Position numbers and translations under genes: made by a program
Assembly: GCF_043950625.1 (NCBI RefSeq)
Contig: NZ_CP171007.1
Length of the DNA stretch: 32,000 bases
From: Alkanindiges sp. WGS2144
GTDB taxonomy: Bacteria > Pseudomonadota > Gammaproteobacteria > Pseudomonadales > Moraxellaceae
Direction: 5' to 3' (one strand)
Shown here: positions 5,600-19,102 of the stretch, one piece after another
Numbering within the stretch: position 1 is the stretch's first letter
How the letters are laid out: every line of letters starts with the position of its first letter
Notes under the pieces: generated by a model
Databases searched by the model: none
Seen by the model: the letters and a program-made list of their open reading frames with translations, nothing else
What the model was told of the DNA's origin: nothing

Positions 5600-6247
5600 A
5601 TGCCAATGTTAAAGCAAAAAACCTATATGAGTGAACAGGACTATCTGGAAGGCGAATTGCATTCAGACATCAAGCATGAATATATTGATGGTGAAGTCTA
5701 TGTCATGTCTGGTGCGCACGCCAACCATAATCGTATTGCTGGCAATGTATACCGCAAATTGGGTAATCACTTAGAAGGAAAACCCTGCCAGCCCTATAGC
5801 TCAGATATGAAGGTCAAAGTCGGCAGCAAATATTTTTATCCTGATGTCATGGTAGAGTGTCAGGAAGCGGATGGATATTTCACCGAGTCACCCATTTTAC
5901 TGGTAGAGGTCTTATCCAAATCCACACGCCGTCATGATAAAACCTTTAAACGTCTGGCCTATCTGCAAATTCCGACCCTACAGGAATATGTACTCATAGA
6001 GCAGGACTTTGTTGAAATTGAACTATGGCGACGTACAGCGCAATCCCACTGGCAACAGAACGTTTATTATCTGGGCGATGACATTTATTTTGCTTCAATA
6101 GACCTAAGCATTGCGGTTGCAGATATTTATGATCGGGTTAAAAATACCGACATGCAGGAATGGCTACAGAAAAAGGCCGACTCGCAAGCAACGCAACAGT
6201 CTGAGCAACAGACCGAAAAAAGCCAGGAAAAGCAGGAGCAAAATTAA
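5600..6247 (+). CDS. Uma2-family (DUF820) PD-(D/E)xK-like endonuclease with a Q/E/K-rich C-terminal tail
   Basis: EYIDGEVYVMSGA, HNRIAGNVY, YPDVMV and LLVEVLSKST form a motif series typical of the Uma2 family. AGGAG lies 8 nt upstream of the ATG. The last ~30 aa are low complexity (QATQQSEQQTEKSQEKQEQN). Confidence 0.8.
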   Translation: MPMLKQKTYMSEQDYLEGELHSDIKHEYIDGEVYVMSGAHANHNRIAGNVYRKLGNHLEGKPCQPYSSDMKVKVGSKYFYPDVMVECQEADGYFTESPILLVEVLSKSTRRHDKTFKRLAYLQIPTLQEYVLIEQDFVEIELWRRTAQSHWQQNVYYLGDDIYFASIDLSIAVADIYDRVKNTDMQEWLQKKADSQATQQSEQQTEKSQEKQEQN

Positions 6248-6251
6248 TAGG

Positions 6252-7622
6252 TCACACACTCAAACCATTCACACAATTTAAAATTGCCCCAATCTTATCC
6301 AGACATTCCTGATATTCTTCTTCGCCATCTGATGCAACAGTAATACCACCACCCGCCCAGGCCGTTAGCATATCCCCATGTTTTTGCAGGCTACGGATCA
6401 AAATATTAAAGCGCCCCGTGCCATCATAGTTTAAATAACCCATACTGCCACAATACGCACCGCGTGCTTGTGCTTCCAGCTCATCAATAATCTGCATGGC
6501 GCGAATTTTGGGTGCGCCAGTAATTGAACCACCGGGCAGGGCAGCAAATAATACATCCAGCGGTGAAGCATCCGGTTTTAAAGTGGCCTTTATTTCACTG
6601 ACCAAGTGATGCACCTGCGCAAAGCTTTCCACCTCAAACAGTTTTGGTACCTGCACACTGCCAGTTTGTGCATAAATACTTAAATCATTACGCAACAAAT
6701 CCACAATCATCAGGTTTTCTGCCCGGTCTTTTGCTGAGTGCAATAATGCCTGCCTAAGCTGTTCATCCTGGATGGGATCAGCATGGCGTGGCCTTGTACC
6801 TTTTATGGGGCGGGTAATGACCTCGCCCTGCTGTCCAAACTCAATAAATAACTCTGGCGAGCAACTTAATAGCTCAAAATCTTCGTATTTTGTATAACCG
6901 GCATAAGCCGCTTTGGTTAGGTGTAGCAAAGCATCCATCGCTGCAAGCAAGCTTCCTTCAGCTTGTGCAACAAAAGGCTGAGTCAAATTAACCTGATAGC
7001 AGTCCCCTTGCTGCAAATACTGCTGAATCTGCTTAAAAGCCAGACGGTATTGTGCTTTATGCCACACCGGCCGAAATGCTTTTAATATCTGTAAGTCTGT
7101 AGGGCTAGGCTGGGGCACAGAATCATTTAATAGGTTTTTAATAAAATTATATACAGGGATCAATTCGGCCAGATCTGGGCCATACAATTGCCAGCCATTG
7201 TGTTCCTGCCTTAAAAAAATATCGTATTCGCCCATCAGGGCAGCTGGTGCCTGAATCTGTTTAAGTGAAACAAACTGACTGGCGGCCAGGTCATAGCCGA
7301 CAAAACCCAGCAATCCACCATCAAATCGCAACTTACTGCCTGCATCGCAACAAGCATTTGAATTTAATTTATTTTCCCCCCAAGTTTGTTTTATGCAGCT
7401 TTTAAAGCTTTGCTGCGTCATGGAAGCTTCATAAGTTAGCCCATGCCTTATTTGTTTAAGCGTCTGATCGGGCTGCAACACTATATACAGCCATTTGGGG
7501 AATATCCCAATGACTGACTGATAGGCATCATTAAGTGAATGTAAGCCATGGCAGTTTTGTAACTTTGTACACAAACTTTGAAGAGATTCACAAAATGGAT
7601 AAAAATACTGCTTAACGATCAC
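6252..7622 (-). CDS. pabB: Aminodeoxychorismate synthase component I (chorismate-binding enzyme)
   Basis: 456 aa, with GDCYQVNLTQ, PIKGTRPR and GGSITGAPKIRAMQII motifs. The size and the GDCYQVNL block favour PabB over TrpE. No glutamine amidotransferase partner is adjacent. Confidence 0.85.
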   Translation of the reverse strand: MIVKQYFYPFCESLQSLCTKLQNCHGLHSLNDAYQSVIGIFPKWLYIVLQPDQTLKQIRHGLTYEASMTQQSFKSCIKQTWGENKLNSNACCDAGSKLRFDGGLLGFVGYDLAASQFVSLKQIQAPAALMGEYDIFLRQEHNGWQLYGPDLAELIPVYNFIKNLLNDSVPQPSPTDLQILKAFRPVWHKAQYRLAFKQIQQYLQQGDCYQVNLTQPFVAQAEGSLLAAMDALLHLTKAAYAGYTKYEDFELLSCSPELFIEFGQQGEVITRPIKGTRPRHADPIQDEQLRQALLHSAKDRAENLMIVDLLRNDLSIYAQTGSVQVPKLFEVESFAQVHHLVSEIKATLKPDASPLDVLFAALPGGSITGAPKIRAMQIIDELEAQARGAYCGSMGYLNYDGTGRFNILIRSLQKHGDMLTAWAGGGITVASDGEEEYQECLDKIGAILNCVNGLSV

Positions 7623-7904: not shown

Positions 7905-8807
7905 ATGAAGCTTTTTACTAAACTGGCTTTAGTTTGTGCAATCGCTGTTAGCGGTAGTGCAATGGCTATGGAATCACTGGACGATACAGCACTGAGTTCT
8001 GCAACTGGTCAGGAAGGTATCACTGTAAATGTGTTTAGCGATGGTATTTCTATCGGAAAGCTATTAATTCATGACGAAGATGGCTTATCTACTCGTGAAA
8101 CCACCCCGGGCGGTCAGAACTTGGGCGGTACTGGTGAAACAGGTGCCATCGTGGTTAATGATATATCTTTGGCAGTCGATGAGGATAATGCAAATGGAGC
8201 GCTCCGAGGTGCTTTAGCAAATATCAACATTGACACTGATGGTAACGGCGGCGATGCTTTCCTGAACATAGGTATCAATACTAATGCTCTGGCTGTTGAA
8301 GTAGGTAGCATTGCAGTAGCAAAGTCAGCTGATACTGTAACTGGTGCACGTCGTGGTACAGTTACTGGTGTTGCTGCAGATGATGAAACTGAAATTCTGG
8401 GTGCTTTAAGTGTAAATATTGGTGCGACCAGCATGAACATTCAGTTGGGTGCTGATGCTCCCCAAGATGCTCTGATCTGGGCAAATGCTACTATCACCAA
8501 TGGTATCAAAATTTCCAATATCGACTTAAAAGATCATTCAGATATGGATGGTTCAATCACAGCACTAGGTGGCTCAGGTTCTATTGGAATCGATAATTTA
8601 TACATCACCACTGCTGGCAGTGAAGATTTAATTGTAAATACCAAGATTGGTGTATCTCAGAATGGCTTAGTAGTTAAGTCTTCTGGTTCACAGGATATTT
8701 ACATGGATGCTGTACGTCTGGGTAGTGCTTCTGCTGCCTCTATCGGTGCAGTTGAAATCCAGGGCTTGAACATGGGTGAATCCATGATCGTTGTATCTGG
8801 TCACTAA
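7905..8807 (+). CDS. filA: Secreted Gly/Asn/Asp/Thr-rich repeat protein, paralog 1 of 4 (FilA-like/DUF6160-like putative fibre subunit)
   Basis: 300 aa. AGGAG RBS. Signal peptide MKLFTKLALVCAIAVSGSAMA|ME. Mature N-terminus ESLDDTALSSATGQEGITV. Ends ...MIVVSGH. No Cys in the mature part. Codon usage is dominated by GGT/GCT/ACT. The symbol comes from my memory of the Acinetobacter fil locus annotation and is unverified. Confidence 0.75.
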   Translation: MKLFTKLALVCAIAVSGSAMAMESLDDTALSSATGQEGITVNVFSDGISIGKLLIHDEDGLSTRETTPGGQNLGGTGETGAIVVNDISLAVDEDNANGALRGALANINIDTDGNGGDAFLNIGINTNALAVEVGSIAVAKSADTVTGARRGTVTGVAADDETEILGALSVNIGATSMNIQLGADAPQDALIWANATITNGIKISNIDLKDHSDMDGSITALGGSGSIGIDNLYITTAGSEDLIVNTKIGVSQNGLVVKSSGSQDIYMDAVRLGSASAASIGAVEIQGLNMGESMIVVSGH

Positions 8808-8816
8808 GTAACGGAT

Positions 8817-8847
8817 GGCTGGTAACCTTAGGGTTGCCAGCCTTTTT
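8817..8847 (+). terminator. Rho-independent terminator/attenuator directly after paralog 1
   Basis: GGCTGGTAAC (8817-8826) pairs with GTTGCCAGCC (8833-8842): a 10-bp stem with one G-U pair and a 6-nt loop, followed by TTTTT at 8843-8847. Confidence 0.7.
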
Positions 8848-8897
8848 GACCTGCTATTTGTAATCAGTGTTATCTTCAAGGGACAAGGAAATATACT

Positions 8898-9749
8898 ATG
8901 AAAACTTTAACAAAAATTGCTTTGGTTTCAGCAATGGCAATTAGCAGCAGTGCTTTTGCGTTGGAATCACTTGATGATTCAGCACTGAGCGCAACTACTG
9001 GTCAGGATGGTATTACCATTAAACTGGATGCCCAACAAGACGGTACCATTTTTGGTGCAGACAACATTGTTGTGCATGACAAAGACGGTGTTGGTAATAA
9101 CAATGGTGTATCCAATACTGGCGCTGGTGCGATTGTTTTAGGTAAAGGTGCTGCGGGCATTCAAGGTTTTAATATTATGGGTACTGCTAGTGATGCAGTA
9201 ACTATTAAAGTGGATGCAGATTCTAACGGTACTGCTCCAGTGTTAAACGTAAATGTTGCGCTGCCAGATGAATTAGAAGTAAATACTGGTGATATCTACG
9301 TGGCTTCATCAGGTGGTATTGCTGCTGACGCAAATGCTCAATTTGCTAATGAATCCAAAATTCTGGATAACATCAACATTAGCCTGGGTGGTGCTGAGAT
9401 GAACATCCAGCTGGGTAACACTGCACAAGGTGCCATGATTGTACTGGACGGTAATGTGGACGGTGGTATCAATATTGCTGGTCTGGCATTGACTGATAAC
9501 TCTGCTGGTGCAGGTGGTAAAATCACGATTGATAACATTAACGTACGTGACGCTGGTGGAGCCAACTTGGGCTTAGCCACTGACATTAAAGTAACCAATG
9601 ATGGTTTGTCAGTAATCCGTACCGGTGGTGATGTTGACGTTCGCTTAAGTGGTGTTCAGTTAGGCTCTGTTGGCCTTGCCCATAACCTGGGTGACGTAGC
9701 TATTCTGGGTATGGCTGTACCTAATATTACCATTAGCGGCCATAACTAA
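8898..9749 (+). CDS. Secreted Gly/Asn/Asp/Thr-rich repeat protein, paralog 2 of 4 (FilA-like)
   Basis: 283 aa. Signal peptide ...SSSAFA|LE. Mature N-terminus LESLDDSALSATTGQDGITI. Contains DADSNG and EMNIQLGNTAQG blocks. Ends ...NITISGHN. Gly codons are dominated by GGT. Confidence 0.75.
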   Translation: MKTLTKIALVSAMAISSSAFALESLDDSALSATTGQDGITIKLDAQQDGTIFGADNIVVHDKDGVGNNNGVSNTGAGAIVLGKGAAGIQGFNIMGTASDAVTIKVDADSNGTAPVLNVNVALPDELEVNTGDIYVASSGGIAADANAQFANESKILDNINISLGGAEMNIQLGNTAQGAMIVLDGNVDGGINIAGLALTDNSAGAGGKITIDNINVRDAGGANLGLATDIKVTNDGLSVIRTGGDVDVRLSGVQLGSVGLAHNLGDVAILGMAVPNITISGHN

Positions 9750-9774
9750 TTATAGTGCCGTTTTCTGGGTAATA

Positions 9775-9805
9775 AACAAGGCGGCATACAATGTGCCGCC
9801 TTGTT
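9775..9805 (+). terminator. Perfect 12-bp hairpin after paralog 2 (terminator-like, lacks a clean U-tract)
   Basis: AACAAGGCGGCA (9775-9786) pairs with TGCCGCCTTGTT (9794-9805) around a 7-nt loop. It is followed by GTCACGG rather than a T-run. Confidence 0.45.
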
Positions 9806-9886
9806 GTCACGGGGTAGAGGAGGTTAATCATAGTCTTGGGCGGGAAGCCTAACTAACCAAACGCTAGAGGCTAGAGGGAACTGTAG

Positions 9887-10738
9887 ATGATGCCACTAAA
9901 AACTATAATCATGACTTCTTTGCTATTGGCAAATGGTTCAGTATTTGCCTTGCAAACACTGGATGATTCTTCCTTGAGTCAGGCAACCGGACAGGATGGC
10001 ATTACCGTAACCTTGCAGGATTTTGAGCCCAATGCGCAGATTATCTGGACAGATACCAATGGTATTAATAGTGCCGATGGTATAGACCCTGCTAGTGTTG
10101 GAATTATAACAACCACACCACAGCCTGGTGCAGTGGTATTTGGTGATGGAACAAGAGCAAATAACTTTAGAATTAGTAAAGGCACCACGACACTAACTCT
10201 GGATGCTGACGGCAATAATGGTTCCCCAATGCTGAATATTAATATCAGTCTGCCTGAGGATTTAACGGTGCAAACTGGGGATATTTTTGTAGCTGGCAAG
10301 GATAATAATAACCAGCTGGTAAATATGATCAAAATTATGAATGACGTTAAGGTGGAGCTTGGTGGCTTGGATCTTAATGTACAGTTGGGTAGTGCCCCAC
10401 AGGGGCAACTGTTGAAATTTTATGGAACAGTAGTAGGTGGTATCCGTATTTCTAACCTAGCGTTAATTTCGGAGTCTTCAGGTACTGAGCAATATGGCAT
10501 TGGCATTCAGAAGATAACGGTTCGGGATGCAGGTGCAAGCGGTGACTTAACCTTTAATGGTAGTGGTGTCAGCGTTGCCAACACAGGGTTGATTATTACA
10601 CCTTCTGCTGGTAAACAGGTAGATGTATTAATGGATGATGTAAAAGTAGGTAACCTGGCTAGCAGTGCATCAATTGGTGGGGTGGCTGTGCTTGGTATGC
10701 AGCTTGATGGTAATTCATTAACGATCTCTGGACACTAA
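9887..10738 (+). CDS. Secreted repeat protein, paralog 3 of 4 (FilA-like)
   Basis: 283 aa. Signal peptide ...NGSVFA|LQ. Mature N-terminus LQTLDDSSLSQATGQDGITV. Contains DADGNNG and DLNVQLGSAPQG blocks. Ends ...SLTISGH. The start could be the second ATG (9890). Confidence 0.72.
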   Translation: MMPLKTIIMTSLLLANGSVFALQTLDDSSLSQATGQDGITVTLQDFEPNAQIIWTDTNGINSADGIDPASVGIITTTPQPGAVVFGDGTRANNFRISKGTTTLTLDADGNNGSPMLNINISLPEDLTVQTGDIFVAGKDNNNQLVNMIKIMNDVKVELGGLDLNVQLGSAPQGQLLKFYGTVVGGIRISNLALISESSGTEQYGIGIQKITVRDAGASGDLTFNGSGVSVANTGLIITPSAGKQVDVLMDDVKVGNLASSASIGGVAVLGMQLDGNSLTISGH

Positions 10739-10820
10739 AGATAAAAGGTACGCCGCCATTACTTGCTACACTCTGAAGTGGCGCTGAGTTGAAGCACTAT
10801 TTGAAAGGCAGGAAGCTCTA

Positions 10821-11816
10821 ATGAAATGTACAACTGCAAAGCTGGCATATCTTGCAATATTAATACCATTGTCTTCTCACACATGGGCATTACAGGCTCT
10901 GGATGATCAATCTCTGGCCGCGCAAACAGGTCAGGATGGCATCAGTATGGCACTGGACTATCCTAACTCAACCATTAGTTTTAGTGAGGTGATATTAACC
11001 GATACTGATGGTATGCCAGATGCTACAAATGGCGCTTCACTGATTGTTGCTCCTGCAACATATAGCGACACCCAGGGCATTCGTATGTTTAAAAACAATA
11101 GCAATACTGCTATTGCCACCGCCCCTGTGCTCATCAAGATGGATGCGGACAGTAATAGTAATCAACCAGTATTTAATGCCAATATTTCCTTACCTACTGA
11201 TTTGGGACGTATGCGGATTAACCCGTTTTCAATTTATTTAACCGCTGGTTCAGATTCTATTTTCGAGCCTGGCACACGCATAAAAGATAGTACAGGCACT
11301 ATAAGAGCCACAGGCGTGACAGAGCTACTAAGAGTGAATACTGAAGGCATTGATGTGGTGTTTAAAGAAGGTGATCCCCTTAGTGTCAATGTACAGTTAG
11401 GAAATGCACCTCAGGGGCATATGCTCAAATTTACCGGTGGTAGTATTTTGTGTGTAGGTAACAATGCCTCATGCATGGCAACACAGGGTGAGGAAGGGAA
11501 AAATCCCATTGAGCTGATCTCTAAAAACAGTTCGGGTGAATCTAGCTTGAAACTTGGATTTACGCTTAAGGCGAGTGAACAGGATACCGGTTTCCGCCTG
11601 GCAGGTTTTTATGCAGGCTTTGATAATGACGGGCTGATATTTGGCAAAGAAGGTTCCACAGATAAGTTTGATTTTGTGTTAAATAATGTGGTTGCAGGCG
11701 AGGCAGGGGCACAAGCTCCAGAGACCTTTAATCATCTCAAAAATGGTTCAATGGGTAATTTTGGTTTAATAGGGGCTTCAGTCACTAATCTAAAAGTCAA
11801 TGTAAAGGGAATGTGA
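10821..11816 (+). CDS. Secreted repeat protein, divergent paralog 4 of 4 (FilA-like N-terminal two-thirds, unrelated C-terminal region)
   Basis: 331 aa. Signal peptide ...SSHTWA|LQ. Mature N-terminus LQALDDQSLAAQTGQDGISM. Contains DADSNSN and SVNVQLGNAPQG blocks. The C-terminal ~130 aa differ from paralogs 1-3, contain a CX6C pair, and end ...VNVKGM with no SGH terminus. Confidence 0.7.
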   Translation: MKCTTAKLAYLAILIPLSSHTWALQALDDQSLAAQTGQDGISMALDYPNSTISFSEVILTDTDGMPDATNGASLIVAPATYSDTQGIRMFKNNSNTAIATAPVLIKMDADSNSNQPVFNANISLPTDLGRMRINPFSIYLTAGSDSIFEPGTRIKDSTGTIRATGVTELLRVNTEGIDVVFKEGDPLSVNVQLGNAPQGHMLKFTGGSILCVGNNASCMATQGEEGKNPIELISKNSSGESSLKLGFTLKASEQDTGFRLAGFYAGFDNDGLIFGKEGSTDKFDFVLNNVVAGEAGAQAPETFNHLKNGSMGNFGLIGASVTNLKVNVKGM

Positions 11817-11825
11817 TTTGAGCGT

Positions 11826-11853
11826 GATTAATTTGCTAGTTGGCAAATTAATC
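11826..11853. repeat. Perfect 11-bp AT-rich inverted repeat between the subunit genes and the peptidase gene
   Basis: GATTAATTTGC (11826-11836) pairs with GCAAATTAATC (11843-11853) around a 6-nt loop. It is followed by CAAAAAAA, not a T-run. Confidence 0.5.
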
Positions 11854-11908
11854 CAAAAAAATTAGTGTAATTGTGAATAAAACACGGTATCTTGTAACCA
11901 CATGGACG

Positions 11909-11930
11909 GCGATTAGTAACTTCTAATCGC
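11909..11930. repeat. Perfect 8-bp inverted repeat (hairpin) upstream of the peptidase gene
   Basis: GCGATTAG (11909-11916) pairs with CTAATCGC (11923-11930) around a 6-nt loop. Confidence 0.45.
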
Positions 11931-11993
11931 ACCTTCAATAGGATATGGTGATGTTCTTTAACTGGATATCACCCACAATTAGAAAAACTTGCT

Positions 11994-12830
11994 ATGTTTA
12001 TCGTCACGCTAGGATCAGCCTTAATTTATCATTTTGCCACTGAAGCATTACAAGTGGCGGATAAACCTGCTGGCTCAGTGTATTACACTGAAGTGGCAGA
12101 TTCCCGTTATCCCTCATTTGGTAAGTACCACCGTGAACCTGTTCAGGTCAAGCCGGCTATCGAACAGCAGTTCCGCGGTATTGTCAAACAAGCTTATGAC
12201 TATAGCTGTGGTTCAGCAGCGCTAACTACTTTGCTTAATGGCTATGTGGGCGAAAAGCTAAATGAGCGTCAAACCATGGATGGATTGATGCGCTATGGTG
12301 AGTATGATCGCATTGTAGAGCGGCGCAGCTTTTCACTGTTAGATATGAAACGCTTTGTAACGGCGCTAGGATACAATAGTGGCGGCTATAAAGGTAAATT
12401 TGAGGATCTCATAGCTCTTGATAAACCAGCCATTGTGCCTATTGCCTATGCTGGTTTTAAGCATTTTGTCGTATATAAAGCCTATCGTAATGGTCGTGTG
12501 TTTGTCGCTGACCCGGCTTTGGGTAATTTAAGTTTTAGTGCCGATCATTTTCAGGAAATCTGGGACAATAATACGCTGTTCATCGTTGACCCTCCGGTGG
12601 GACGTGAATTACCTGGTTTGCTTGCCCTGCAAGAACAGGATATGCGTATTGTGGAGGATAGCGTAATTGATCGATTTGCTTTTGTAGATGTACGCTATCC
12701 TACGTTAATGATGGAAAAAAATGCTGACCGGGCTGCCACTATGCGCAGAGTGCTTGATGAAGATCCAAAATCAGCAACCTATCAGCAACCTATTGATGTC
12801 CCTCTACGCTTATATTATAAGCGTAAATAA
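11994..12830 (+). CDS. filB: Stand-alone C39-type (papain-fold) cysteine peptidase, predicted exported (FilB-like)
   Basis: 278 aa. QAYDYSCGSAALTTLLN carries the catalytic-type Cys72 (nt 12207-12209). GFKHFVVY carries His157 (12462-12464). VFVADPALG carries Asp173 (12510-12512). There is no ABC-transporter domain. The 5' end is problematic (see findings). Confidence 0.75.
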   Translation: MFIVTLGSALIYHFATEALQVADKPAGSVYYTEVADSRYPSFGKYHREPVQVKPAIEQQFRGIVKQAYDYSCGSAALTTLLNGYVGEKLNERQTMDGLMRYGEYDRIVERRSFSLLDMKRFVTALGYNSGGYKGKFEDLIALDKPAIVPIAYAGFKHFVVYKAYRNGRVFVADPALGNLSFSADHFQEIWDNNTLFIVDPPVGRELPGLLALQEQDMRIVEDSVIDRFAFVDVRYPTLMMEKNADRAATMRRVLDEDPKSATYQQPIDVPLRLYYKRK

Positions 12831-12877: not shown

Positions 12878-14179
12878 ATGGTCATGCAGAAACAATGGAT
12901 GAATCGCTCAATACTGGCCCTAAGTATTAGTTTGGCAATGATTGGGGCGAATGTGCATGCAGCAGATGCAGAGGATTCTCAGGTTAATGAGAGTGCGGAC
13001 AGTGAAATAACCACTACACAGGAACAAGAAGGTACCACTGATCCAGTAGCTGCAGAAAGCCGGGAACAGGTTGAAGCTCCCTTAACTCATGATAATAATC
13101 CTGATGAGGTAGAAAGCACGGTTGTCAATACCGTTGCTGAGCGCCCGGATGATACGCAAGAACCAGTTGCTACCGCGCAGAGCGCTGCCACGGCTTCTGG
13201 CTCAACAGCTGTTACTCCTTCTATGGCACCTAAAGACAGTGCTGCCAGTGTTCTGGAGCAAAAAGCGGATGATGCGTCTGCACAAAGCAACTTGGAAGAA
13301 GTATTTACGCGTTCTGAGCAGCAGTATTCCTTATCCAAGCGTGGTTCTTATTCTGCCTACTATGATGTTGACTATAGTTATTACCGTGATAGTCGTCTGG
13401 ATTTGGCATTAAGCGATAGTGGATCAGCACTCACCCGGTTACGTGTGGAAGAGGATGCACAGCACAGTATTACCAATACGTTTACCTTCCAGTATGGTCT
13501 GCTGGATAACGTGACATTAACAGCTTCCTTACCCTTGGTTGCCAAAAGCGATAATCTAAAAGACGCTACTACTGCCGGTCTAGGGGATATTAGCCTGGGA
13601 GCACGCTGGGAACCATTCCCCCTAAAACAGGGCCGCCTGCCGTTAATTTTATTTGGTAGCCTCTCTACTAAAACAGGTGATAGTCCCTACGAAATTGACC
13701 CGGTTCGTGGCTTATCGACAGGTAAAGGATATTATTCCATCGGCGGCGGTGCCAGTACCCGTAAGTTTATTGATCCTGTCGTATTGTTTGCCTCTGGTTC
13801 GGTTAGCTATGGTCTAAAAGAAACAGGTATTAATCAGGTGCGGGGTAATACCAACCGGATTCTGGAGTCTTTTGATCCTGGAATGAGCGGTGGTATTTCG
13901 TTTGGTTTTGCATACTCATTTAACTATGATGTGTCTTTAACCATGTCATACCAGCAAAGCTTCTCGACTGGCAGTGAGTTTAAATTTGACAATGGTGATG
14001 TTTCAAAGCCAGCTGATCAAACCAGTGCCTCACTTGGTTTTTCTCTAGGGGTGCGGGTAACACCCAAGACTATTGTTAATGGTTCAGTGGGCTTTGGCTT
14101 AACTGAAGATGCGCCAGATGTGTCTTTAGGTCTTTCTTTCCCGCTGGATTTCCTGGGTTTTGGCCGTGACAACCGCTGA
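12878..14179 (+). CDS. filC: Outer-membrane beta-barrel protein (MetA/phenol-degradation 'transporter'-type, GLGD motif) with a long acidic N-terminal extension (FilC-like)
   Basis: 433 aa. Signal peptide ...GANVHA|AD. About 120 aa of D/E/S/T/A/Q-rich low complexity follow. The remainder alternates amphipathic strands, including TTAGLGDISLGARWEP, which is typical of that barrel family. Confidence 0.6.
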   Translation: MVMQKQWMNRSILALSISLAMIGANVHAADAEDSQVNESADSEITTTQEQEGTTDPVAAESREQVEAPLTHDNNPDEVESTVVNTVAERPDDTQEPVATAQSAATASGSTAVTPSMAPKDSAASVLEQKADDASAQSNLEEVFTRSEQQYSLSKRGSYSAYYDVDYSYYRDSRLDLALSDSGSALTRLRVEEDAQHSITNTFTFQYGLLDNVTLTASLPLVAKSDNLKDATTAGLGDISLGARWEPFPLKQGRLPLILFGSLSTKTGDSPYEIDPVRGLSTGKGYYSIGGGASTRKFIDPVVLFASGSVSYGLKETGINQVRGNTNRILESFDPGMSGGISFGFAYSFNYDVSLTMSYQQSFSTGSEFKFDNGDVSKPADQTSASLGFSLGVRVTPKTIVNGSVGFGLTEDAPDVSLGLSFPLDFLGFGRDNR

Positions 14180-14190
14180 GGCACGCTAGT

Positions 14191-15855
14191 ATGAAAATAA
14201 ATTTGCGCTTGCGGCCTTTAAGTTGTGCCATATTGCTGTCCAGCGTTTCGGCTTTATCTCATGCACAGCTAGGGCAAAACCTGTCTATTGATATTCGTGC
14301 TTTATCCATGGGGAATGCGGTTACTGCAGACCCGCCGGGAATCAGTGCGATTCATTTTAACCCGGCAGGTTTAACCAAAATACAGGGTTTACAAACTGAT
14401 GTTCAGGGCTTGCTGGTAGACTTTAACATTCGCCGAGAATTTGAAGCACCGCCAGGCTATAACGTATTTGGTTATTCAGATGATCCTCTTATTTGTAATG
14501 AAATGGAGATGGGTCAAAAATTATGTGGGGAATTTAAGGATTACGCGGTTAGTAAGGTTGATCATCCCAGTCTTTATGTCCCTGTTCTAAAGAAAATTGT
14601 TAACTGGCCACAAGGCTTACCATTAGCCGCCCCTTTGGCGGGGGCCGCCTATAATCCTCCAGGCTCAAAAATTACATATGCTTCGGGTTTATATGCGCCG
14701 TTAGTTGCAGGCTTTGGTTCGGCAGATGGTGATCCTGGTAACTACATGGGTCAGCAAGTAGCCATTGAGCGGATCACTTATTTATCCCCCTCAGCAGCCT
14801 ATAAGGTTAATGATCACTTATCGTTGGGTGCTTCGGTAGGTATGTCTTATCAGGCCATTGGCTTAAAGACAGATTTACGTTTTCCCAATGAATTGATTGG
14901 CGTACTACGCTTAATTGATGAAGATGTCTGTGGCCCATTTAAAGAAAATGGTAATATTGTTGGTAACCTATTATTATTTGGTATTTGTAATGCTGAGGAG
15001 AGTATAGGGCCGTTTAAAAAGCTAGCTGCCATGGACGTGGCGCTGGAGCAAAGCTTATCTCCTACGTATAACCTGGGTTTGCTCTGGGAACCTAATGATG
15101 ATTTTGGCTTTGGTATGGTTTATCAAAGCTCTAGCAAAATGAAGCTTAAGGGCAAGTATGCTATTGATAATGGCAGAGGTGCGCAGGAGCTGATTCGTGC
15201 TTTGGGTTCGTCAGCTACAGGTGTAATTTTACAGGCTATTTTAGGCTTCCCATCTTATATACCTCCTACAGAAAGTGGCATTGTATCCATGGACTTGGAG
15301 TATCCAGCGCATTTTCAGGCAGGGATTAAATATAAGGTAATGCCGGACTTACAGTTTAATTTTGATATCGGCTGGACGGATTATGCTGCCTGGGATTCCT
15401 TCAAATTTAATTTTGACCGCCAGGTATCTGCTTTAAAAATTGCACGACTTTTAACTAACGGCGCTACCCCAACAAGTCTGGAACTTCCTTTAGGATTTCG
15501 CAGCCCCTGGAGCTGGGGGGTAGGCATGGAGTATAGTGCGACTGATCGTTTAAAGCTGCGGTTAGGTTATGAACCTCGAAAGAGTGCTATTCCCGACGAT
15601 CGACGTAATACGCTGGTGCCAATTAATAATGCACAAATGTTTGGTGCCGGTATTGGTTATCAATTCGATCCGGATACCACAATTGACCTAACAGCGATGC
15701 ATTTACGTAGTCGTGATAATATTCCTGCAAATACAAGTGGGCTAGCCAACAAAACCGGGGTGAATAATTTATTGTTAAACCCATATGCAGGCTTGGACAT
15801 TAAAACCAACACAAAAGTTACCATTTTAGGTATAGCATATCGCACGGTTTGGTAA
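14191..15855 (+). CDS. filD: FadL/TodX (OMPP1) family outer-membrane transport protein (FilD-like)
   Basis: 554 aa. Signal peptide ...ALSHA|QL. LSMGNAVTADPPGISAIHFNPAGL is the N-terminal hallmark of the FadL family. The C-terminal beta-signal is ...LGIAYRTVW. It starts 11 nt after filC. Confidence 0.75.
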   Translation: MKINLRLRPLSCAILLSSVSALSHAQLGQNLSIDIRALSMGNAVTADPPGISAIHFNPAGLTKIQGLQTDVQGLLVDFNIRREFEAPPGYNVFGYSDDPLICNEMEMGQKLCGEFKDYAVSKVDHPSLYVPVLKKIVNWPQGLPLAAPLAGAAYNPPGSKITYASGLYAPLVAGFGSADGDPGNYMGQQVAIERITYLSPSAAYKVNDHLSLGASVGMSYQAIGLKTDLRFPNELIGVLRLIDEDVCGPFKENGNIVGNLLLFGICNAEESIGPFKKLAAMDVALEQSLSPTYNLGLLWEPNDDFGFGMVYQSSSKMKLKGKYAIDNGRGAQELIRALGSSATGVILQAILGFPSYIPPTESGIVSMDLEYPAHFQAGIKYKVMPDLQFNFDIGWTDYAAWDSFKFNFDRQVSALKIARLLTNGATPTSLELPLGFRSPWSWGVGMEYSATDRLKLRLGYEPRKSAIPDDRRNTLVPINNAQMFGAGIGYQFDPDTTIDLTAMHLRSRDNIPANTSGLANKTGVNNLLLNPYAGLDIKTNTKVTILGIAYRTVW

Positions 15856-15867
15856 CTGGTACTCATC

Positions 15868-17091
15868 ATGCCTATAAATATCTGGAAATTTATCGCGATC
15901 AGTGGATTAGGCCTGCTTTGTATAAACCCGGTTGCTCATGCAGAGCGCTCCGGGTTTTATACAATTATTGGCCCGGATGGGCGTATCATGGTAGTTGATC
16001 GCAATGCTCCAAGCGACCGTGAAACCAGGACGAAAGTAGCTACTAAGCAACCTAAAACTGCTCATAAGACAGCGACATCTTCAAAGTGGTCTTTATTTAG
16101 TGGCAAGACTAAAAGTAAGATAGTGAACTCACCACAGCAGCCTACCTCGGCTGTTAATTCTACTCTACCAGCAGGTAAAACTACCCCCTCAGCTACAACT
16201 CACGATTCTGCCCCAACTTCAGTAAGTCATTCTGTTGAGCAGCGGGTGTTTGTCCAGCAGCCAGAAATGCAATCGATAAGTAAAACAGAAGCCGCTATAA
16301 AAACAAATTCAGTAAAAGCAGAAAATAGTGAAAATCCTATAAAAAATAAGGCCATTCCGGCTTCCAGCCCTACTGTACAACCATCAATAGGAGAAGAATC
16401 GCCGTCCGTTGATAGCCAGCCAGTTAAAACCATTGATGGCGAGCAGTATGTCGATAGCGAATACTTAGAGGCGCATGAGTTTAATTTAGAAGGAAAAAAA
16501 AGATTTTATAACCTGCCTGATGGTTTGGGAGGCACGCAGGTGCTCCAGCGTGAAAAGGGCGTCGATATGAGTTTCTTTCGACGTTTTAAAGCCGAGCAAC
16601 CGCAGCAGCAGGTTGTTAACCTGGCAAAGAACTATCAGCGTCTTAGCCAGAATGAGGTAACAGCACTTACTGGAGTACAATGCTTTAGTGAAAAGCAATT
16701 GAAAAAAGCCAAGCTGCTCCGTAAAGATGAAAGCCTGAGTTTATGGCCCAAGCCTGGGTTTGAGCCAAAATTTGATTTTGTAGTCGCACGGCTATCTGAA
16801 CAAATTAATGATATCCAATTTAATTCATATGCTGATAAGATCAGTAATCCTGAATTTTACTGGCCTTTACCTATATTTCTGGATGATAAAGGCTGCGTAA
16901 TAGAGGGGGTCAATGCGTTTTATCAGCAGACCATTTCCCCTACGGTGACTACTCGCCAGGCACTGCAAGGCTATATGCATATTCCGACAGGTACGAGCTA
17001 TGTATTGCTAACTCCACTTGAGGCAGCAGTTGACCTTGAACATATTCAGTTAACGGACAAAGGACAGGTTCGTTTAACACCGGTTCGTTAA
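15868..17091 (+). CDS. filE: Exported protein of unknown function with an S/T/P/Q/K-rich linker (FilE-like)
   Basis: 407 aa. Signal peptide ...INPVAHA|ER. A low-complexity region of ~140 aa (nt ~16009-16437) follows, then a ~215-aa C-terminal domain. It starts 12 nt after filD. The symbol comes from the remembered fil locus order. Confidence 0.55.
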   Translation: MPINIWKFIAISGLGLLCINPVAHAERSGFYTIIGPDGRIMVVDRNAPSDRETRTKVATKQPKTAHKTATSSKWSLFSGKTKSKIVNSPQQPTSAVNSTLPAGKTTPSATTHDSAPTSVSHSVEQRVFVQQPEMQSISKTEAAIKTNSVKAENSENPIKNKAIPASSPTVQPSIGEESPSVDSQPVKTIDGEQYVDSEYLEAHEFNLEGKKRFYNLPDGLGGTQVLQREKGVDMSFFRRFKAEQPQQQVVNLAKNYQRLSQNEVTALTGVQCFSEKQLKKAKLLRKDESLSLWPKPGFEPKFDFVVARLSEQINDIQFNSYADKISNPEFYWPLPIFLDDKGCVIEGVNAFYQQTISPTVTTRQALQGYMHIPTGTSYVLLTPLEAAVDLEHIQLTDKGQVRLTPVR

Positions 17092-17119: not shown

Positions 17120-19102
17120 ATGAACAGATTTTACAAAAACTCAAAGAGCCCGTTTGCATTAACAACCTTATGCTTGTTACTCAGTGCTTGTGGCGGTGAA
17201 AGCAATACATTTAATGAAGGCTCTGGCTCAACAGGTGGTGGTCAAGGCAATGGCAGTATGACGCTACTATGCCCCAGCGATGATTTAAGTTGTGTAGATG
17301 TGGTATTTGATGATACGCCAGTGGTGAACTTGAATTACGAATGCGGCAAGTATAATGGGGTAACCGATGCAACAGGCACTGCACGCTGTCCTATTGACTC
17401 TAATGTCAAATTTTATCTTAAGGCAGCTAATGGCGTACGCCGGGTTAACCTAGGTACTTTTTCTATCAAATCAGTGCGGAATAATGACCCGTCTGAAGCG
17501 CAGGATACCTCACTAATTCGTATAGGCGTTAAAGAACTGGCCGAAAATACGACAGGTGCTTCCATTAATAATCTTGATGATAGTGCAACAGCAACGGCAG
17601 CCATTAATATTAGTCGGCTTTTACAGTCCTTGCGGCGCAAATCAGAGCCCTATGTAGAGACAGCACCAGTCAATCGTGTCTATATTGATAATGCCGTTAA
17701 AGCTGATATTGAAAAAATAAGCCAGAACGTAGAGCCTAAGGATTTCCTGGATGATACTTTTGAGGAAAAGCTGGCACCCTGGTTAGAAGCGCAAAAAAGA
17801 ACCTTGCTTGATGAAGGTGTTGCAAAGGCCAGACTGGAGAAAACCATACTTGCCACTAAGTCGGGTATATTCTTCTCTACTCCCACAGCTACGCTGGATT
17901 GGGGTATGCAGATTGGTAGCCTAAATCTGGATTTAGGCATTTCTGGTTCAAATGCCAATAATCAGCGTGCCAGTGTGGCTGTATATATGCTCACAGACCG
18001 CACAGGGCAAACCACGGGCTATGGGATGCAATGGACTGGGCAGACGACTACTGCTCAAGATGCATATAAGCTATTTTTAACCAGCAATTTTGCCAAAATG
18101 CGTATCAATAATGCATCCGGTAGCATTGATCCTTACACTGATCGTTTTAATAAACTGGGTTTCAAAGTTGGGCCCAAAACTTACGAAGCGAACGATGCCA
18201 ATCAGTATAGTGGAGATACCTTTAGTTTTAATAATGGTAAGTTAATTCGGGACTTGGCTGTTTTTGGTTCTGCCGATGTATATGAGTTTTTTACTCGCGT
18301 GAAAATAGCAGACCAAACTGAGCTTGGTACCTGGGAGCAAAAAACACCAACAGGAAGCACCAGTTTTACCGGAAACGCAACGGTATTTAAAACTGGCGCG
18401 ATAAATAGCTACTTTGATCCGGCGGTATGGCGTACCAAAGATAGTATCACTGCAGGCAACTACATATTCCCTTTGTATGCTACTTTTACATTCAGCTACG
18501 ATGACGCTTATTTGGAGGAGTGCAAGAAGCAAGCCCTTACTTGTGCTAAATCAGATCAGTTACCTGTGGTCTTCCTGGAAAATGGTGACATTATGACCGA
18601 TGGCGATAATGCAGATCTATTAGTGAACTCAAAAGCAGTATGTGGGCAGGGTAATATTCCACAAACTCGTATTGGTACTGTGCGTGCTGCTTATACCAGC
18701 ACAGATGGCAATCAGGCTTATATTAATCCCAGTGTGATTTTATCCGGTGATCAGTTTGGTGCACTGGATGGTATACAAATAGGCACTTCTGCGTTGGCGC
18801 CCCGGGTCAAAATTAATATTGCTGGTATTAAACAGGCTGCAACCGGTCAGCAAGGTAGCATTAACGTGACCAGTGCTGAGGGCGGCGACACTGCTTCAGG
18901 TAACGCGCCAGGAGTTTGGGTGAATGGATTTAATAGCTTTACAGGCTTTCGTGTAGCACAAAAAGAGGCAGAAGATGCGGCAGAAGAGAAGCCTGAAAAA
19001 CCGTCACCAGCCATTACCAAAGCGCAAAAACTTGCCTCTGAACAGGTGGCAGGTAATCTTGCGGCAAGTGTTTCTTCTTGTTATACAGTAAAACAGAAGT
19101 AA
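17120..19102 (+). CDS. filF: Large lipoprotein of unknown function (FilF-like)
   Basis: 660 aa. Lipobox LLLSAC|GGES with Gly at +2, which predicts outer-membrane sorting. There are four Cys within the first ~70 mature residues and a K/E/A/P-rich C-terminal tail. The size and position match my memory of Acinetobacter FilF. Confidence 0.6.
   Translation: MNRFYKNSKSPFALTTLCLLLSACGGESNTFNEGSGSTGGGQGNGSMTLLCPSDDLSCVDVVFDDTPVVNLNYECGKYNGVTDATGTARCPIDSNVKFYLKAANGVRRVNLGTFSIKSVRNNDPSEAQDTSLIRIGVKELAENTTGASINNLDDSATATAAINISRLLQSLRRKSEPYVETAPVNRVYIDNAVKADIEKISQNVEPKDFLDDTFEEKLAPWLEAQKRTLLDEGVAKARLEKTILATKSGIFFSTPTATLDWGMQIGSLNLDLGISGSNANNQRASVAVYMLTDRTGQTTGYGMQWTGQTTTAQDAYKLFLTSNFAKMRINNASGSIDPYTDRFNKLGFKVGPKTYEANDANQYSGDTFSFNNGKLIRDLAVFGSADVYEFFTRVKIADQTELGTWEQKTPTGSTSFTGNATVFKTGAINSYFDPAVWRTKDSITAGNYIFPLYATFTFSYDDAYLEECKKQALTCAKSDQLPVVFLENGDIMTDGDNADLLVNSKAVCGQGNIPQTRIGTVRAAYTSTDGNQAYINPSVILSGDQFGALDGIQIGTSALAPRVKINIAGIKQAATGQQGSINVTSAEGGDTASGNAPGVWVNGFNSFTGFRVAQKEAEDAAEEKPEKPSPAITKAQKLASEQVAGNLAASVSSCYTVKQK

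Follow-up and report, generated by a model that had tools for sequence, protein, structure and literature searches.

A window of 32,000 nucleotides from Alkanindiges sp. WGS2144 (the window being the whole stretch of DNA analysed here) carries, in the order filA1-A2-A3-A4-B-C-D-E-F and all on the + strand, what profile matches identify as a Fil pilus operon with filF as its last gene. We consider it rather probable that a block of 15 residues, which directly follows the predicted signal-peptidase site in all four FilA paralogs, is a periplasmic leader-like tag that the neighbouring peptidase FilB reads and probably cuts after Gly-Gln, and that the operon pathway and the paralog roles are as proposed below. 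What is new is a four-subunit variant of a named, mechanistically little-studied pilus system; the family itself was already known. The original prediction, made from the DNA letters, had taken the four genes for fibre subunits with one specialised outlier, and this agrees with our results since all four match FilA and DUF6160, the filaments of relatives are known and paralog 4 belongs to a distinct subfamily. It had also proposed that the mature N-terminus is a recognition or processing element tied to a papain-fold neighbour, and of its ideas this one gained the most support, given that the block fits the register of C39 leaders and recurs in FapE.

By direct translation the four open reading frames at window positions 7905-11816 encode proteins of 300 (filA1, paralog 1, 7905-8807), 283 (filA2, paralog 2, 8898-9749), 283 (filA3, paralog 3, 9887-10738) and 331 (filA4, paralog 4, 10821-11816) amino acids, all on the + strand and separated by gaps of 90, 137 and 82 nucleotides, with pairwise identities of 30-43%. 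Paralog 2 is 100% identical to the protein P0001 of Alkanindiges sp. WGS2144, which places the window in this Moraxellaceae genome. All four align, almost from end to end, with the NCBIfam model NF050077 (‘putative pilus system protein FilA’). Measured against the curated whole-protein cut-off of 220 bits, paralogs 1 and 2 lie above it (272.7 and 256.7 bits), paralog 3 is 0.2 bits short of it (219.8 bits) and paralog 4 is far below it (94.8 bits). The scores for DUF6160 (PF19657), a domain made up of the signal peptide, the tag and the first strands, are 47.9, 42.8, 32.9 and 30.4 bits for paralogs 1-4, all above the gathering score of 27 bits. On these matches we assign the four genes as four versions of FilA, the subunit of the Fil surface pilus of Acinetobacter-type bacteria. 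In Acinetobacter gp16 FilA forms thin, curved filaments whose subunit was identified by mass spectrometry (PMC10980823; PMC11539960), and in the ‘Fil fimbriae’ of Acinetobacter sp. Tol 5 Edman degradation identified FilA, recovered as a monomer (PMC3498257); the Tol 5 proteome contains FilA in high abundance, and FilC, FilD and FilE were detected in it too. An extracellular Fil filament has been seen, then, in Acinetobacter relatives, and that of Alkanindiges, known here from its genes, is predicted by analogy. In the literature searched we found no publication on Fil pilus assembly or on a role of the tag, and the supplements of PMC10980823 and PMC11784438 hold no peptide-level data on the FilA N-terminus.

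The block reads (M/L)(E/Q)x(L/M)DDxxL(S/A)xxTGQ and occupies residues 22-36 of paralog 1 (MESLDDTALSSATGQ, window 7968-8012), paralog 2 (LESLDDSALSATTGQ, 8961-9005) and paralog 3 (LQTLDDSSLSQATGQ, 9950-9994) and residues 24-38 of paralog 4 (LQALDDQSLAAQTGQ, 10890-10934), on the + strand in each case. The proposed signal-peptidase sites, with A/A, A/A, V/A and T/A at positions -3/-1, conform to the usual rule for such predicted sites. The nucleotide ranges and motif positions quoted in the original prediction were all reproduced on translation: the ranges 7977-8021, 8970-9014, 9959-10003 and 10899-10943 translate to LDDTALSSATGQEGI, LDDSALSATTGQDGI, LDDSSLSQATGQDGI and LDDQSLAAQTGQDGI, LDD lies at residues 25-27 in paralogs 1-3 (27-29 in paralog 4), and the C-termini are VVSGH, TISGHN and TISGH in paralogs 1-3 and VNVKGM in paralog 4. 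The (P/A)QG block needs amendment for paralog 1, where NIQLGADAPQD gives PQD. In an alignment of 82 homologues of the paralog 1-3 type (henceforth type-A), T34, G35, Q36 and G38 are invariant (82/82; 91-92/92 for the paralog-4 type), L25 is L/M in 81 sequences and V in one, D27 is D/E, L30 is L/M, S31 is S in 78, and the last residue is His in 77. Of the best 120 homologues of paralog 2, 100 match the pattern, 99 of them with the block at residues 25-27, and most sequences end in xGH. An exhaustive profile search of 1.84 billion cluster representatives returned 909 relatives at E <= 0.001, and in 134 newly returned representatives TGQDG was present in 106, with a GH end in 108 and a GK end in 16. 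With the Gln of TGQ numbered -1, L(-12), D(-10) and L(-7) are almost invariant in the 82 type-A and 92 paralog-4-type homologues and in these 134 representatives. A regular expression for the block matched 112 of 1279 open reading frames from 81 loci, and all 112 were also matches of the FilA hidden Markov model (HMM). Because overall identity is 30-43%, yet the T, G, Q and G positions do not vary, the conservation of the block is, as judged from these alignments, far beyond chance. Homologues in the alignments and in the profile search thus keep both the N-terminal block and the terminal Gly-His, as the original prediction required of them; conserved across hundreds of homologues, the two are therefore signatures of the family, and while the protein in general evolves fast, its two termini are conserved best. 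The extra Asn that follows SGH in paralog 2 (SGHN, window 9744-9749) occurs in one of the 82 aligned homologues and also in the closely related locus L001, and would be a notable exception if a free C-terminal His is important.

The spacing of the conserved residues within the block resembles that of double-glycine leaders. C39 peptidases recognise Leu(-12)-X3-Glu(-8)-Leu(-7) in leaders ending in Gly-Gly/Ala/Ser, and on the leader helix the -4, -7 and -12 residues come to lie in a hydrophobic groove (PMC6363468). With the invariant Gln of FilA counted as -1, the residue that directly follows the signal-peptidase site is at -15 and is L/M; the tag further has L/M at -12, D at -10, L/M at -7, S/A at -6 and G at -2. 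Across the 82 sequences L/M is found at -12 in 81 and at -7 in 82, and G(-2) and Gln(-1) in all 82, with Glu(-8) in only 14. An element in the same register is present in FapE of the fap system. The search with FapF fragments yielded mostly fragmentary open reading frames of frameshifted assemblies and only one clean fap operon (L085, from Pseudomonas), in which FapE (6523-7257; NCBIfam FapE, E 1.5e-100) reads AHA/GFKPEL-IQDQELSQLRGR-YVMPG, the stroke marking the end of the signal peptide; FapA, FapB and FapC of this operon are without the tag. For a larger set, a metagenome scan with an alignment of FapD and FilB gave 80 loci (L089-L168) with 70 FapE homologues, of which 42 were distinct sequences. 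All 42 have a hydrophobic residue at -12, L/M at -7, L/M/I at -4, R at -3, G at -2 and R/K at -1, and nearly all have D at -10 (41/42), E at -8 (39/42) and A/S at -6 (39/42). FapE thus carries, right after its signal peptide, a near-perfect leader of the double-glycine type that ends in R-G-(R/K) and mismatches at -1 only, and it has in common with FilA the hydrophobic -12, D -10, L/M -7, S/A -6 and G -2. A strict regular expression for both proteins gave no background match in 401,468 residues outside N-termini. The element in FapE is a candidate recognition or cleavage site of FapD, for which we found no description in the papers searched.

FapD is the periplasmic C39 peptidase of the fap system; its catalytic Cys is needed for FapC secretion (PMC5557850; PMC6173800), its substrate ‘is yet to be determined’ (PMC6173800), and, of the Fap proteins, FapE alone lacked N-terminal peptides in whole-cell mass spectrometry (PMC5557850; PMC6173800). 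FilB (window 11994-12830, + strand; NF050078 511.4 bits, cut-off 475; Pfam Peptidase_C39) matches the FapD model at E 2.4e-30 (105.5 bits, cut-off 330), and FapD matches FilB at E 8e-30. Its Q66, C72, H157 and D173 are invariant in 81 orthologues; it matches the C39 double-glycine protease domains of PCAT1 and LahT150 in the PDB and, in a Pfam scan, has no ATP-binding cassette (ABC) transporter domains. The putative exporter FilC (12878-14179, + strand; NF050079 613.9 bits, cut-off 630) matches the FapF model at E 1.7e-15 (56.7 bits, cut-off 700), and its residues 277-424, the C-terminal barrel region, match the FapF structures 5o65 and 5o67 at about E 1e-9. From these scores we take FilB to be homologous to FapD and FilC to FapF, not as equivalogs, which makes the Fil machinery a cousin of the system that exports Fap in Pseudomonas. 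The comparison with FapC/FapB that had been drawn earlier holds for the machinery and fails for the subunits: the genuine fap operon matches FapBC and the four paralogs do not, and because matches to FapBC and curli are lacking and the models are confidently folded and all-beta, the FilA subunits are not amyloid-repeat proteins. Both systems have Sec-exported substrates, and FapE carries the leader-like element of FilA in the same place. They differ in that the Fap subunits are Asn/Gln-rich repeat amyloids and FilA is a folded all-beta protein; in the residue before the putative cut, Arg/Lys in FapE and Gln in FilA; in that only the minor FapE is tagged in Fap, whereas every subunit is tagged in Fil; and in that Fil adds the FadL-type FilD, FilE and the lipoprotein FilF and is without FapA, FapB and FapC.

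The identity of FilB also bears on the earlier, more speculative suggestion that the invariant Gln is a site of enzymatic processing or cross-linking. On a cross-linking reading FilB would be a transglutaminase or transpeptidase that joins subunits at this Gln or, in the manner of a sortase and after removal of the last residue, at the C-terminal Gly. A papain-like fold with a Cys nucleophile, the invariant Gln of TGQDG and a penultimate Gly that is invariant in both subfamilies would all suit such an enzyme. The cross-linking suggestion is nevertheless unlikely, and we give it very little credence, because FilA from Tol 5 surface preparations is monomeric on denaturing polyacrylamide gels (PMC3498257), because FilB has the Q/C/H/D signature, conserved in 81 orthologues, and the similarities of leader-cleaving C39 peptidases and not those of transglutaminases, and because the equivalent position in FapE is Arg/Lys.

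Taken together, these observations suggest the following pathway for the leader-like tag. The FilA precursor would cross the inner membrane via Sec and lose its AxA-type signal peptide, and this would expose the element of about 15 residues, which as a short helix presenting Leu(-12), Leu(-7) and Gly(-2) would constitute a periplasmic leader of the double-glycine type. The helix would dock on FilB, with a probable cut after Gly-Gln, so that the mature pilin would start with DGI(T/S). Recognition or cleavage would license export via the FapF-like FilC and the FadL-like FilD, and the exported pilin would build the thin, curved Fil filament by non-covalent polymerisation. As the tag is common to all four paralogs, they would use the same route. 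The family membership, the operon anatomy and gene order, the conservation of the block and termini, the orthology, the FilB/FapD and FilC/FapF homology and the register of the FilA and FapE tags are direct observations; from them we infer that FilB binds the tag and cleaves it after Gly-Gln, and also in which order the steps follow and what role each paralog has. The proposed leader shares with those of ComA/ComC, PCAT1/CtA and LahT the peptidase family (C39, as FilB), the hydrophobic -12 and -7 and the Gly -2 in register and a helical recognition segment, the helix of FilA being predicted with low confidence. It differs from them in several respects: double-glycine leaders are at the extreme N-terminus and cytoplasmic, whereas that of FilA comes after a Sec signal peptide and would have its action in the periplasm; their cargo is a small peptide, whereas FilA is a pilin of 26-31 kDa; their peptidase is part of an ABC transporter, whereas FilB is without one; and their -1 residue is Gly/Ala/Ser, whereas it is Gln in FilA and Arg/Lys in FapE, with Thr/Ala at -4 of FilA.

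The tag is also found on proteins other than pilins. The fil operon of A. guerrae (L071) has a single filA, and its type-4-like gene (that is, like paralog 4) is located elsewhere, in a cluster where five genes in succession encode secreted proteins of 641, 229, 800, 463 and 319 amino acids (L081, 3446-10960, RAXU01000001.1). All five proteins are tagged right after the signal peptide (ISDESLSETTGE, INSDDLSHITGQ, MNDSDMRAVDGQ, LTDKELSEQTGQ and LDDQSLSATTGQ), and the last of them (319 amino acids) is the paralog-4-like one. DUF6160 covers only the signal peptide and the tag of the 229-, 800- and 463-residue proteins, the 641-residue protein has no Pfam match, and the cluster has no peptidase or outer-membrane genes. 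The occurrence of the tag on otherwise different proteins means that it is a portable address and not part of one fold, and the Fil machinery may have the tagged A. guerrae proteins as accessory or tip cargo. Neither inspection of the N-termini nor the regular expression for the block revealed a tag in FilC, FilD, FilE or FilF. We further propose, as a tentative generalisation that we hold with somewhat less assurance than the reading of the FilA tag itself, that FilA and FapE may define a two-step address in which a Sec signal peptide is followed by a leader of the double-glycine type that free periplasmic C39 peptidases (FilB and FapD) would read and remove after Gly-Gln or Gly-Arg/Lys, thereby gating FapF-type exporters.

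Several results weigh against a cleaved leader. When the isolated tags were compared with NCBIfam (E <= 10), no leader-peptide HMM was matched, only FilA and FapE, and FapE does not match DUF6160; for this reason the link between FilA, FapE and leaders is one of motif register and not of profile homology. Canonical leaders carry Gly/Ala/Ser at -1 and a hydrophobic residue at -4, and FilA deviates from them with Gln and Thr/Ala, respectively; in A. sedimenti, A. marinus and A. populi there are also paralogs in which Ala occupies -2 (TAQDG). Rouse et al. proposed that FapE is cleaved more distally, at a GG/GA site (PMC5557850). The confidence of the AlphaFold2 models over the tag is only ~54-71 (predicted local distance difference test, pLDDT), and the roles of the paralogs are drawn from synteny only. 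Conservation, moreover, extends past the proposed cut (D in 78/82, G in 82/82, then I/V/L and T/S), which is unusual for the point where leader and core meet and would be compatible, too, with a structural turn that the mature protein retains.

This unbroken conservation through TGQDGI(T/S) is what would be expected of the main rival, namely that the tag is an outer-membrane targeting signal that is retained on the pilin and read by outer-membrane components (FilC, FilD or FilE), with FilB processing another component, such as FilC, FilE or FilF, or acting only as a chaperone. A model for such a signal is CsgA, in which the N-terminal 22 residues target the protein to CsgG/CsgE. The A. guerrae cluster, tagged and without a peptidase of its own, implies likewise that the tag need only address a shared exporter; Rouse et al. 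held FapF itself to be a possible substrate of FapD (PMC5557850), and some C39-like domains are non-catalytic chaperones (PMC5557850; PMC6173800). We nevertheless regard a retained signal as rather unlikely, since the invariant catalytic tetrad of FilB indicates that proteolysis is under selection, the tag fits the recognition positions of C39 leaders and no known outer-membrane targeting motif, FapE with the same tag is the very Fap protein that loses its N-terminus, and FilC, FilD, FilE and FilF are not tagged. As a separate observation, TAQDG replaces TGQDG in p3- and/or p4-type paralogs of A. sedimenti, A. marinus, A. populi and A. puyangensis (L010, L074, L011 and L023), and the p1 and p2 types keep Gly(-2) in species with such paralogs; the variant may reflect co-variation with FilB or a relaxed specificity.

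Structure prediction bears on a further alternative. AlphaFold2 with deep alignments modelled paralog 2 with a pLDDT of 83.1 and a predicted template modelling (TM) score of 0.69, and paralog 4 with values of 84.9 and 0.79. Both models have a signal-peptide helix, a short helix over the tag (residues 27-34 and 29-36, respectively) and an all-beta domain right after GQDG, the first beta strand of paralog 2 starting from residue 38. FilA is thus modelled as a folded all-beta protein of about 260 residues. The beta-solenoid that had been anticipated was not matched when both models were compared with the PDB by Foldseek, which returned nothing at E <= 0.001 and no TM score above 0.2, only weak Der p 7 and LptA/LptC-like matches; searches of PDB sequences with paralog 2 and with the family profile gave nothing meaningful (calerythrin, E 0.1; Affilin, E 0.64). 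Among the PDB searches, therefore, the modelled fold has no solved structural relative. A fold of this kind could allow an unusual assembly interface, and the block could be a retained polymerisation element, an N-terminal extension that would cap the adjacent subunit or insert into it by donor-strand complementation or strand exchange, as in chaperone-usher pili, with the C-terminal strand and Gly-His as its partner; that both termini are the most conserved parts of a fast-evolving protein and that paralog 4 differs precisely in its terminal residue would be in keeping with this. The segment is, however, predicted to be helical, if with low confidence, and shows no beta strand; the tag is also found on FapE and on unrelated bodies of 229-800 residues, for all of which one docking groove is not feasible; and the operon has neither chaperone nor usher. 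We therefore judge a polymerisation element to be improbable and prefer the leader-like tag.

We next consider the relation of the four paralogs to each other. The original prediction held that paralog 4 swaps its C-terminal ~130 residues for unrelated sequence, and this proved wrong: in hhalign the type-A and type-4 profiles align end to end (probability 100, E 2.5e-40, columns 15-297 against 4-327), with the Gly-Met of type-4 aligned to the Gly-His of type-A. Paralog 4 is thus no chimera with a foreign C-terminal domain. The Cys pair noted in it, C211 (TGT, 11451-11453) and C218 (TGC, 11472-11474), comprises indeed the only Cys residues of the four paralogs outside the signal peptides, but it is not a feature of the family and was rejected as a mark of paralog 4: Cys residues occur at those columns in only 15 of 92 orthologues, and 43 of the 92 have no mature Cys at all. 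Paralog 4 has 108 strong homologues of its own, and 87 of the 92 aligned sequences of its type end in (K/R/S)G(M/L) and 90 in G(M/L).

The distribution of the paralogs was derived from a FilB scan of species-representative genomes, which gave 80 loci. The 58 Acinetobacter loci that carry only one filA include those of A. calcoaceticus, A. pittii, A. nosocomialis, A. baylyi, A. haemolyticus and A. junii; the best match of this filA by BLAST is paralog 1, and paralogs 2, 3 and 4 have no counterpart in these fil operons. In Alkanindiges, several metagenome-assembled genomes of Moraxellaceae, Aquirhabdus and four Acinetobacter species (A. sedimenti, A. marinus, A. populi and A. puyangensis), the number of type-A genes is one to three and exactly one type-4 gene comes after them, and where a fil operon holds a type-4 gene it is always the last filA, directly before filB. 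By best hit, the order p1-p2-p3-p4-filB is kept in six other loci (L001, L002, L003, L008, L010 and L074), and the paralogs are therefore four old orthologous classes and not recent duplicates. Paralog 1 is, by best-hit assignment, the ortholog of the canonical single FilA of Acinetobacter, the experimentally seen pilin, and is probably the major shaft pilin. Paralog 4 is probably a low-copy adaptor, tip, base or other minor specialised subunit, and paralogs 2 and 3 would be additional subunits that use the same export route. The earlier expectation about paralog 4 in related loci is borne out in that it forms a conserved subfamily and not in that it is absent from the fil operon of most Acinetobacter species (the 58 loci); because these carry a single p1-type FilA, paralog 4 is not universally required.

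The regions downstream of the filA genes differ in their predicted hairpins. Directly after filA1 a hairpin like an intrinsic terminator (8817-8847, + strand) has an 11-pair stem with seven G-C pairs followed by TTTTT and is the centroid structure of the fold; a strong terminator with a U tract at this place fits a major subunit that is transcribed in excess. After filA2 there is a GC-rich hairpin of 14 bp without a clear U tract (9775-9805, + strand; the fold of 9747-9890 has a z-score of -2.71, and 0 of 200 shuffles folded as well), and after filA4 there are two hairpins (11824-11860 and ~11905-11935; z-score -4.75 for 11814-11963). Unlike filA1, filA2 and filA4, filA3 has no strong hairpin 3' of it. 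The hairpins along the operon suggest a graded transcriptional attenuation. The filA terminator of A. baumannii is in use as a strong terminator for strain engineering.

Downstream of filB and filC the operon continues, all on the + strand, with filD, which encodes an outer-membrane barrel of the FadL/OmpP1/TodX family (14191-15855; NF050080 1029.1 bits, cut-off 970; Toluene_X E 2e-63), filE, for a secreted protein with a FilE_C domain (15868-17091; NF033645 377.8 bits, cut-off 100, E 6.9e-113; PF22881 E 2.9e-62), and filF, for a probable lipoprotein with LLSAC/GG in its N-terminus (17120-19102; NF050081 371.7 bits, cut-off 390). FilC and FilF are slightly below the cut-offs of their models, yet match the profiles over their full length. 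The genes from filA1 to filF form one unit because the flanking genes are housekeeping genes: upstream they encode an aminotransferase (hisC), a Uma2 nuclease and a chorismate-binding enzyme, downstream Nudix hydrolases and unrelated housekeeping functions. The Acinetobacter filABCDEF operon (NF050077-NF050081, NF033645) has its genes in this order too, with homology in every component, and the flanks are also alike: in the Tol 5 protein list hisC precedes FilA by two accessions, and in L083 a gene for a chorismate-binding enzyme lies upstream. The Acinetobacter operon differs in having one filA instead of four, and paralog 4 scores only 94.8 bits against the 220 of the FilA model. FilF has already been tried as a vaccine antigen.

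Other fibre systems were compared as well. With Pfam and NCBIfam there were no curlin-repeat or CsgG/E/F matches in the operon and no usher or PapD-like chaperone match among its proteins, and a Pfam scan gave no N_methyl match; unlike the class III signal of type IV pilins, the signal peptides of the paralogs are classical AxA ones followed by an acidic segment. In Type V pili (FimA/Mfa1) of Bacteroidia a cysteine protease removes an N-terminal segment and so licenses polymerisation, and a conserved C-terminal strand joins the subunits; these pilins are lipoproteins and are cut by gingipains at the cell surface. The likeness to Fil is a functional analogy only; neither PDB sequence searches nor Foldseek detected any similarity of sequence or fold.

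Some further features of the window are of note. The DADxNx block that had been placed at residues 106-111 of paralogs 2 and 3 is there as DADSNG and DADGNN, respectively. It belongs to DxDxN blocks found in all four genes (window 8220-8237, 9213-9230, 10202-10219 and 11142-11159; pattern (I/V/M)DADxN(G/S/N)xxP(V/M)(L/F)N) and common to both subfamilies, with D108, D110 and N119 of paralog 4 invariant in 92 sequences. The DxDxN(G) block resembles a calcium-binding loop, and the only PDB sequence match of this kind was the weak one to the EF-hand protein calerythrin (E 0.1). Residues ~28-150 of FilC (window 12960-13330) are a long acidic low-complexity region, rich in Ser, Thr, Ala and Gln, that precedes the FapF-like barrel; the equivalent place in FapF is taken by a periplasmic coiled coil and linker. 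In the public annotation paralog 4 (P0121, 315 amino acids) starts 16 codons 3' of the ATG at 10821 (window 10821-10868), which removes most of the signal peptide; because orthologues such as that of L001 retain the signal peptide whole, the database start is probably wrong. Long open reading frames of 86-117 amino acids on the - strand inside filA1, filA2 and filA3 (8114-8440, 9338-9598 and 9979-10332) are probably not genes: they are Pro/Ala/Ser/Val-rich and mirror sense frames rich in Gly/Asn/Asp/Thr. The Uma2-family gene, which encodes a putative restriction endonuclease, lies at 5600-6247 between the genes for the aminotransferase and the chorismate-binding enzyme.

Fil pili are abundant surface filaments of Acinetobacter, clinical species included, and their structure, assembly and function are essentially unstudied. 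The four conserved subunit classes of Alkanindiges, in place of one, provide a natural handle to tell major from minor subunits. The tag offers a precise hypothesis, a cut after Gly-Gln in FilA and after Gly-Arg/Lys in FapE, which links Fil, Fap and the periplasmic C39 peptidases. If it is true, the long-sought substrate of FapD and its recognition motif would be identified, and the Fil pilus would represent a separate, protease-licensed class of Gram-negative pili with a pilin fold that has no solved relative. Should cleavage hold, the tag would be usable to find more substrates by sequence, as with the A. guerrae cluster, and the peptidase would become a target against the biogenesis of both pilus and amyloid.

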